A stretch of 64,000 bases of DNA from Octopus vulgaris (taxonomy: Eukaryota), in assembly GCA_951406725.2 (NCBI GenBank), contig OX597821.1, positions 23,684,001 through 23,748,000 on the forward strand. Reading direction: 5' to 3'. The notes beneath the pieces were generated by a model that saw nothing but the letters and a program-made list of their open reading frames with translations, was not told the origin of the DNA and made no database searches. Both the position numbers and the translations under genes were made by a program. Each line of letters starts with the position of its first letter. The stretch's first letter is position 1. Below are positions 41,423-42,820 of the stretch, piece after piece.

Positions 41423-41900
41423 CCGCAGTCTAATGAGTGAAACAAGTAAAAGATAAAAAGAAATAAAAGATATACATACATACATATATACATATACATA
41501 TATATATATATATATATATATATATATATATATATATATATATATATATGTATATATATATATATATATATATATATATATATATATATAATTAATTAAT
41601 AAGGGTGAGAGAATTAGATACTAATTTAATAGTATATTTATTCAACACCAAGTGGCCTAGTGCTTCGAGAAACCTGGTGTTGAATAAATATACTATTAAA
41701 CTAGTATCTAATTCTCTCACCCTTATTAATTAATTATAATTATGCTGCATTTATTTCTAAATGCTGTATTTGTTTTCCGTGAAAGTTTGGCGCGCTGTTG
41801 GTTGGGGCATTTGAATTATAACGTCGGATGTAATCAATTGAACCACACGCGTATTTATCGTTATGGTAAAATCTGGCGTGTGATTGAGTGGATTTCATCT

Positions 41901-41994
41901 AGATAGTCTTGGCTGACGAGCTATAAATGGATTTTTTTGTAAGTAAAATTACATTTAATTCATTAATAGCGAAACAATTGTCCCAAAATAATCT
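41901..41994 (+). ncRNA. Type I hammerhead ribozyme, intact core (copy 1)
   Basis: UUGG-CUGACGA(41913-19)-GCUAU...AUAGC-GAAA(41971-74)-CAAUUG-UC|CCAA; predicted cleavage after 41982. Confidence 0.88.
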
Positions 41995-42435
41995 GTATTT
42001 TTGTTATTTTTTATTTGCCCTGTCCGTGTGAGCTAACAATCGTACTGACTTTCATGGTAAGCATGTATTTTCGTGGTTGAAACCTTTTGGATTAACTGGT
42101 GCTAGAGTGAGCAATATAGTGACCACTCTCTTATATTTATTTTGTAAAAATATTATAATATGTTATAAAATATTATAATAATCCAGGTTTCTCGAAGCAC
42201 TAGGCCACTTGGTGTTGAATAAATATACTATTAAATTAGTATCTAATTCTCTCACCCTTATTAATTAATTATAATTATGCTGCATTTATTTCTAAATGCT
42301 GTATTTGTTTTCCGTGAAAGTTTGGCGCGCTGTTGGTTGGGGCATTTGAATTATAACGTCGGATGTAATCAATTGAACCACACGCGTATTTATCGTTATG
42401 GTAAAATCTGGCGTGTGATTGAGTGGATTTCATCC

Positions 42436-42530
42436 AGATAGTCTTGGCTGACGAGCTACAAATGGATTTTTTTTGTAAGTAAAATTACATTTAATTCATT
42501 AATAGCGAAACAATTGTCCCAAAATAATCT
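42436..42530 (+). ncRNA. Type I hammerhead ribozyme, intact core (copy 2)
   Basis: CUGACGA 42448-54, GAAA 42507-10, predicted GUC cleavage after 42518. Confidence 0.88.
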
Positions 42531-42820
42531 GTATTTTTGTTATTTTTTATTTGCCCTGTCCGTGTGAGCTAACAATCGTACTGACTTTCATGGTAAGCAT
42601 GTATTTTCGTGGTTGAAACCTTTTGGATTAACTGGTGCTAGAGTGAGCAATATAGTGACCACTCTCTTATATTTATTTTATATATATATATATATATATA
42701 TATATATATATATATATATACTATATTTGTTCCACGTCCTCGCGTTGTTTGGATTAACTTTATATATATATATATATATATATATATATATATATATATA
42801 CATACACACACACATATATA

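Follow-up and report, generated by a model that had tools for sequence, protein, structure and literature searches.

Organization of the insertion

The window (the whole 64,000-nt stretch of Octopus vulgaris DNA that was analyzed) contains an insertion at 41587-42679 that is flanked on both sides by (TA)n tracts, the left target microsatellite spanning 41500-41586 and the right 42680-42720. It is organized as two arms, with unit positions counted from the hammerhead cleavage site: an inverted arm of 91 nt on the minus strand (41587-41677), which covers unit positions 291 to 201, together with a 1.88-unit direct arm on the plus strand (41675-42679), which begins at unit position 228, crosses two cleavage sites, and ends at position 161. 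The arms overlap by 3 nt; the outer end of the inverted arm is the distal ("L") start point, and the direct arm ends at the proximal ("S") start point. Both hammerheads are type I and plus-strand. Hammerhead 1 (41900-41995) has its core at 41913-41919, a stem II region at 41920-41970, the GAAA at 41971-41974, and predicted cleavage after 41982; hammerhead 2 (42435-42531) has its core at 42448-42454, the GAAA at 42507-42510, and predicted cleavage after 42518, with a GUC ending at each of the two sites. Between them lies one whole 536-nt monomer without a long ORF (41983-42518, plus strand), within which unit positions 162-291 form a 130-nt "tail" between the two fixed end points (42144-42273, plus strand), with a short motif and a hairpin that also occur in a second family (family B, below).

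These positions agree with the first-pass annotation, which had placed tandem type I hammerheads 536 nt apart and delimited the same monomer. The two units that it called nearly identical differ by only 3 substitutions and 1 indel in the ∼470 nt over which they overlap, but the array amounts to 1.88 units with a single whole monomer, and the 5' inverted copy that it reported is present but is 91 nt long rather than 89. The hammerhead pair is an insertion product and not a special two-ribozyme cassette, and the locus represents a single insertion from a young family of non-coding 536-nt hammerhead repeats, classed as a non-LTR retrozyme.

Hammerhead fold, covariation, and detection

Stem I has 4 bp in both window hammerheads and extends to 11 pairs with two mismatches, an extended stem as had been noted, although slightly shorter than the ∼12 bp proposed. 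The stem II region is long (51 and 52 nt) with internal loops, and stem III consists of 2 bp with a 4-nt loop, lying within an 8-nt palindrome, matching the earlier description of a ∼50-nt stem II and a palindromic stem III. Stems I and II are predicted with probabilities of 0.7-1.0 in context; stem III is unformed in the monomer model, and the active monomer fold has a probability near 1e-4 (ViennaRNA) because stem III is only 2 bp, which is a point against the main reading set out below. The palindrome is predicted to form a duplex of -6.4 kcal/mol. Invertebrate hammerheads with a 2-bp stem III are reported to cleave efficiently (PMC7229834), and a dimer is therefore possible but not required.

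Covariation was assessed in 20 distinct related hammerheads, drawn from the unit family and its relatives, from the coding families, and from four unassigned loci, and selected for a core pattern and three or more stem I pairs. All 20 keep the 13 core positions unchanged, with CUGANGA, GAAA, and NUH in order. Pairing is present in 88% of cells, compared with 34-45% in slid controls, 14 of 16 pairs have double changes, and the covariation score is reached by 0 of 500 shuffles, a lenient control since the set is related and was picked by core pattern. Stem III is invariant at 2 bp, with a loop that is self-complementary in 92.5% of cells. Fold and covariation together describe three stems with stem I open, the type I arrangement.

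A strict hammerhead descriptor has 2 matches in the window and none in 200 shuffled windows. The Rfam scan that had been suggested as a check misses the motif, real as it is: no hammerhead model matches, either at E≤1 across 8 kb or at E≤10 across 700 nt. This is probably due to the long stem II, and Rfam and short descriptors can overlook such families. A short-stem-II ancestor was sought and rejected, with just 2 matches, both derived from the unit family or its relative. Further unassigned hammerheads lie in flanking DNA (L037:874-957, L044:4893-4975, L069:185-467, and L185:1819-2601), so that the genome contains more such families.

The unit family across the genome

A 28-mer over the cleavage site, used for the genome-wide count that had been proposed, has 2,108 exact copies compared with 0 for a control. 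There are ∼970 candidate places on many contigs, and the best copies are 99-100% identical, in keeping with the recent activity earlier suspected. Examined in detail were 73 loci, comprising the 40 best matches (the window locus included) and a 33-locus positional census of contig 1 (all 33 loci among the first 100 pattern matches); with 30 loci of an older relative these make 103. The 73 include 41 inverted, 30 simple, and 2 complex insertions. Arms longer than one unit number 78 of 112, the longest reaching 12.7 units, a share that is biased upward because the loci were picked by sequence lying at the cleavage site or spanning it. The flank 3' of the arm is TA-rich for 107 of the 112 arms.

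None of the 103 loci has a Penelope ORF contiguous with the unit; some Penelope protein match is nearby at 12, two of them within 300 nt and both beyond a TA run, and none of the 73 loci has an LTR-type layout. The earlier suggestion of an independent retrozyme rather than a solo pseudo-LTR (pLTR) thus stands. The units are non-coding, dispersed, and multicopy, with type I hammerheads in tandem and at least two in a row, as in retrozymes, and relatives that are 71-77% identical to the unit retain the hammerhead. At the level of sequence, these observations support an independent, young, non-coding family of retrozyme type: by genomic criteria a non-LTR retrozyme, and on the RNA side (expression and circles) a candidate. 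It is a selfish element of a known kind, and a host function is not implied.

The unit is matched in sequencing runs under four organism codes. Contigs of four runs, whose kind is guessed to be RNA, cover 26 to 30 of 30 bins and are uninformative on transcription, strand, ends, and circles; among 24 runs, none listed as RNA contains the unit.

Two fixed ends and the insertion footprint

The 3' ends of the arms are at unit position 161 (S) or 291 (L), where a few A/T letters are common to arm and target. One S end and one L end are present in 39 of 41 inverted insertions and in 14 of 14 in the contig 1 census, with probabilities of 4e-10 and 6e-5, respectively, if ends were chosen independently; the composite L033 and L055, whose ends are both S-class, are the exceptions. 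Of the 30 simple insertions, 17 have the S end and 13 the L end. The 5' ends are spread out (chi-square test against a uniform distribution, P = 0.19), and 3 of 82 are at the start of the other arm compared with 4.7 expected, a count on which L1-type twin priming, with one cDNA halting at the second primer, was rejected.

The tail is at one end only in 39 of the 41 inverted insertions, and its length is 130 nt and not 30 to 40. The 130 nt between S and L is the Penelope "tail" in a longer form, and variable 5' truncation, partial tandems, and an inverted 5' copy complete a Penelope-like footprint. Over three families (the unit, family B, and the coding family H1), the one-of-each rule holds in 62 of 64 inverted insertions, which constrains models of Penelope integration. 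The unit is very probably a non-autonomous Penelope-type element, and the Penelope-type mobilization invoked in the first-pass annotation is supported by its fixed ends, inverted arms, and tail; it is the insertion footprint itself that ties this retrozyme to Penelope chemistry.

Locus L033 (L033:2057-3368; G000:C4, near 61.567 Mb) is a composite to which the unit family and family B each contribute one end (S from one, L from the other), and reflects either template switching between two RNAs or a deletion joining two neighbors. A Neptune-like family beside it is a separate insertion without sequence in common.

Template and possible traces of cleavage

In more than 99% of units the sequence runs uninterrupted through the cleavage site, implying either a circle or an uncut multimer as the template; a cut linear monomer was rejected as the main template on this ground and is at most a rare one. 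The 19-mer that follows the cleavage site occurs without the preceding C in 11 copies genome-wide, compared with the 2,108 that are continuous, in a test that overlooks ends whose flank begins with C. In six of the 11 an arm stops precisely at +1; a further one marks a deletion junction, and the remaining four carry point changes or are rearranged. At two other positions taken as controls, 3 of 4 and 2 of 6 matches were true ends, and the 6 ends at the cleavage site are a small excess over these 3 and 2 (Poisson P = 0.04). Five of the six arms cover just the stretch from the S or L start point to the site. Both arms stop at +1/+2 in L320 and L326, and at +1/+4 in L317; symmetric junctions elsewhere in the unit family number 0 of 46 (post hoc P = 0.0009). 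Family B has near-symmetric junctions at other positions in 4 loci, a point against the main reading. We read the arms that end at the cleavage site as rare run-offs from cleaved RNA and so as a putative trace of cleavage in vivo, with the usual template being continuous. In L323, the first half of the hammerhead core is joined straight to +1, with the remaining ribozyme deleted.

Substitutions are fewer within than between arrays (1.4 versus 15.6 in the census and 1.3 versus 3.8 among the best matches), and in 5 of 17 arrays with at least 3 monomers a private variant is fixed in all units and absent from every other one of 51 arrays. This homogeneity, together with the private fixed variants, favors many laps on one unit, and we lean toward a circle as the template. 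Variants that recur in 2 to 4 units, present in 5 of the 17 longer arrays, are left unexplained by a monomer circle, as is a period-4 stretch in L061. In L087, one change is present in 4 of 12 units, and poly-T length alternates within the L031 array. The junction of a circle has the same sequence as a tandem genomic junction, and divergent reverse transcription-PCR is therefore non-discriminating.

Family B and the coding Penelope families

Family B is a second non-coding tandem hammerhead family with a 561-nt unit and ∼2,070 candidate places (for example L144, G000:C18:38817885-38821260, and others). Its hammerhead has a 25-nt stem II region, a U.U mismatch at the base of stem II, and a palindromic stem III, which is longer in older relatives (L178). 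Among 20 loci, its ends are near 190-208 and 291-295, with one of each in 10 of 10 inverted insertions. A tail motif common to the unit family and family B has 4,089 matches, in both families and their relatives, and 0 for a control, and overall similarity between the two units is weak (z = 3.6).

Five intact coding families, H1 to H5 (899, 842, 980, 1,090, and 778 aa, respectively), have Hydra-clade motifs, namely a reverse transcriptase (RT) with a C-terminal GIY-YIG domain, DKT and RW(K), and CxxC and CxH near the end; only H3 has the K after RW, and a CxCX5C linker is present in H2, H3, and H4 and was not found in H1 or H5. Assignment is by these motifs, as defined in section 11 of PMC8557442, and the families are accordingly called Hydra-like; a Pfam search gave no match for H1. 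H1 to H4 have the same hammerhead type as the unit, with a 51- to 60-nt stem II and the same stem III layout, and the H5 core is altered. The target of H1 is (TA)n, its ends lie at 62-67 and 214-227, and 13 of 13 inverted insertions among 19 loci have one of each. This coding family also forms tandems, a point against the main reading. Across L216-L235 and L236-L285 there are at least five Hydra-like families, some with copies near 99% identical, with long linker inserts and tails of ∼115-160 nt. The window itself contains a broken Hydra-like (H2-type) coding remnant at 49907-51521 and a separate H2-type hammerhead at 53772-53870 followed by a TA run.

Blastn found no untranslated sequence alignable with the unit in the six coding families sampled (H1 to H5 and a Neptune-like family), and shuffle z scores against the unit are near 0 for H1 to H3 and 3.3 for H4, in one of nine comparisons. 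A Hydra-clade driver is nonetheless probable by analogy of layout. The Neptune-like Penelope family (L107-L135) is young, with a 781-aa ORF encoding RT and GIY-YIG and with short repeats in its 3' untranslated region (UTR). Naiad, suspected as the driver from the RT in L167, was dropped since full-length copies have a C-terminal endonuclease. L167 was likewise dropped as proof of template switching, as L186 and L187 are duplicates with the left flank of L234.

Relation to known elements

Penelope-like elements are candidate mobilizers of animal retrozymes (PMC7229834), and the mechanism of mobilization is described as still to be elucidated (Li et al. 2026, bioRxiv 10.64898/2026.07.22.740005); the link between the two and the one-sided tail are thus already in print. 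Like metazoan non-LTR retrozymes, the family has non-coding, AT-rich tandem units with a type I hammerhead each, dispersed as monomers to multimers, a 2-bp stem III with a tetraloop, and a proposed Penelope-like driver. It differs from them in its 51-nt stem II region and in its length, and the earlier remark that it is longer than typical holds against the 170-400 nt units of Cervera and de la Pena (2020; PMC7229834) but not against the 51-972 bp range of Li et al. (2026), a survey of 35 species whose invertebrates are three insects and one coral. In the sections of PMC7229834 and the 2026 preprint that were consulted, no retrozyme is described with two fixed start points, inverted arms, or a (TA)n target. 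Metazoan retrozymes are known as RNA, whereas the unit is known here from DNA; no pLTR homology was found for it among the six coding families sampled, whereas 24 of 57 Xenopus retrozyme families matched Repbase elements in the preprint.

Penelope-like insertions with an inverted arm have a 30- to 40-bp tail at one end (Craig et al. 2021, PMC8557442; Arkhipova et al. 2013, PMC3846280), and in a lizard both strands of the target are cut and extended by a Penelope-like protein, which begins at two sites within the RNA, one at each border of the tail (Frangieh et al. 2024, PMC11167929). The unit shares with these systems the 5' truncation, partial tandems, inverted 5' copy, and one-end tail, as well as a tail delimited by two internal start sites of the RT and an AT-rich target; unlike them, it lacks an ORF, and its tail is 130 nt rather than 30 to 40 and is found on either arm. 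Its ends meet (TA)n by way of a few A/T letters; the lizard element, in contrast, began at a non-homologous AC-rich site (PMC11167929).

The Hydra clade (PMC8557442, section 11; Hydra-1_Obim in its supplement) combines a (TA)n target with a pLTR hammerhead, as here, and its protein motifs are present in H1 to H5 of the octopus genome. The stem II region of the Hydra-1_Obim hammerhead is ∼22 nt, compared with 51 to 60 nt in H1 to H4 and the unit, and H1 is 3,624 nt whereas Hydra-clade elements are under 3 kb; the unit, for its part, is non-coding. Non-autonomous Chlamys elements such as MRC1 (PMC8557442) are, like the unit, non-coding, Penelope-like, and multicopy head-to-tail in microsatellites; unlike the unit, they resemble autonomous partners at the 3' end and belong to a clade mostly without canonical hammerheads. 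In literature searched by title and abstract, with subscription journals, Repbase/Dfam, and supplements of the 2026 preprint outside its scope, the unit family is undescribed; searches with subscription journals and Repbase/Dfam likewise excluded returned neither a retrozyme that combines two start sites with a tail of 130 nt nor a long-stem-II hammerhead in Hydra-like elements, and the available text of an octopus repeat annotation (PMC13282606) leaves ribozymes unmentioned.

Proposed mechanism and alternatives

We consider it probable that the unit is copied into TA repeats in trans by a Penelope-like reverse transcriptase/endonuclease, most plausibly of the Hydra clade and acting on circular RNA. 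Arrays would be transcribed and their hammerheads would quite likely cut, possibly as dimers through the palindromic stem III, as suggested by the fold, the covariation, and the genomic trace, and by analogy with known retrozymes a host ligase could well circularize the monomers. The enzyme, modeled on the lizard protein (PMC11167929), would nick both (TA)n strands and start cDNA at 161 and 291, one per target strand, in accord with the observed end points and one-of-each pairing. Each cDNA would run a variable distance, often several units, and two would be joined head to head, or one alone to the target, giving the structures observed. A fuller and more tentative version has an active retrozyme whose RNA circle is copied in rolling-circle fashion by a two-headed Hydra-clade complex, each (TA)n nick priming at a different site, 130 nt apart, to give head-to-head arrays. 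In that version, the long-stem-II, dimer-prone type I hammerhead is common to an intact coding radiation, the rare run-offs record germ-line cleavage, and the two arms may even derive from two different RNAs, with the composite L033 as a possible case. If true, it would give an animal retrozyme a driver enzyme open to testing and would account at once for the Penelope tail and the inversion.

The same element and enzyme could instead use an uncut linear multimer, with the hammerhead cutting rarely or only freeing RNA from read-through transcripts and circles having no role in insertion. The continuity of units across the site, the recurring variants and period-4 stretch of some arrays, the tandems in coding elements, and the finding that RNA left unprocessed serves as the lizard protein's main substrate (PMC11167929) are all as expected for such a template, yet a linear copy cannot exceed its source, and 10 to 12 identical or near-identical units are present in arrays of several haplotypes; array-private fixed variants indicate growth from one unit, and the fold is kept with covariation in relatives 71-77% identical. 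We regard the multimer as a possible but rather unlikely template, noting as points against the main reading that cleavage is unnecessary in vitro (PMC11167929), that only 1 of 9 Xenopus dimers cleaved (Li et al. 2026), and that tandems occur in Naiads without canonical hammerheads (PMC8557442). A driver other than a Hydra-like one, either the young Neptune-like family or another unsampled Penelope clade, is unlikely. The Neptune-like family is intact, with top copies ∼99% identical and one (L107) that ends in (TA)n, and Hydra-like families have no sequence in common with the unit, but the Neptune-like untranslated region is dissimilar as well and lacks a complete hammerhead by the scan used, whereas a long-stem-II hammerhead upstream of a long tail is the H1 to H4 layout.

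That the unit is merely a pLTR or the truncated end of a coding Penelope-like element is very unlikely, and largely refuted by the 103 loci without a contiguous ORF and by head-to-tail units that lack one. The inverted arm, tail, and (TA)n target are as in coding elements, and in L167 a relative 74% like the unit adjoins a Hydra-like RT fragment, but the left flank of L167 is that of an intact element whose UTR is unrelated and whose right flank differs, pointing to a secondary junction or a template jump. Spread as a satellite at the DNA level through unequal exchange and duplication, with an incidental hammerhead, is highly improbable: the arrays are tandem and local exchange may account for recurring variants, but fixed 3' ends with scattered 5' ends, unique flanks, and head-to-head inversions speak against it. 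With copying by a Penelope-like enzyme as the preferred reading, a genome with both young 536-nt copies and intact candidate enzymes makes template, start sites, and driver each testable in vitro and, if the circular-RNA route is true, offers a compact test case for the spread of animal ribozyme circles.

One further observation concerns window positions 42154-42680, where contigs of run X11 have T>C and A>G differences in clusters, with as many as 11 within 96 letters. These clusters may fit A-to-I editing of hairpins formed by inverted arrays, strain differences being the alternative, as the run is under another organism code and its kind is guessed.
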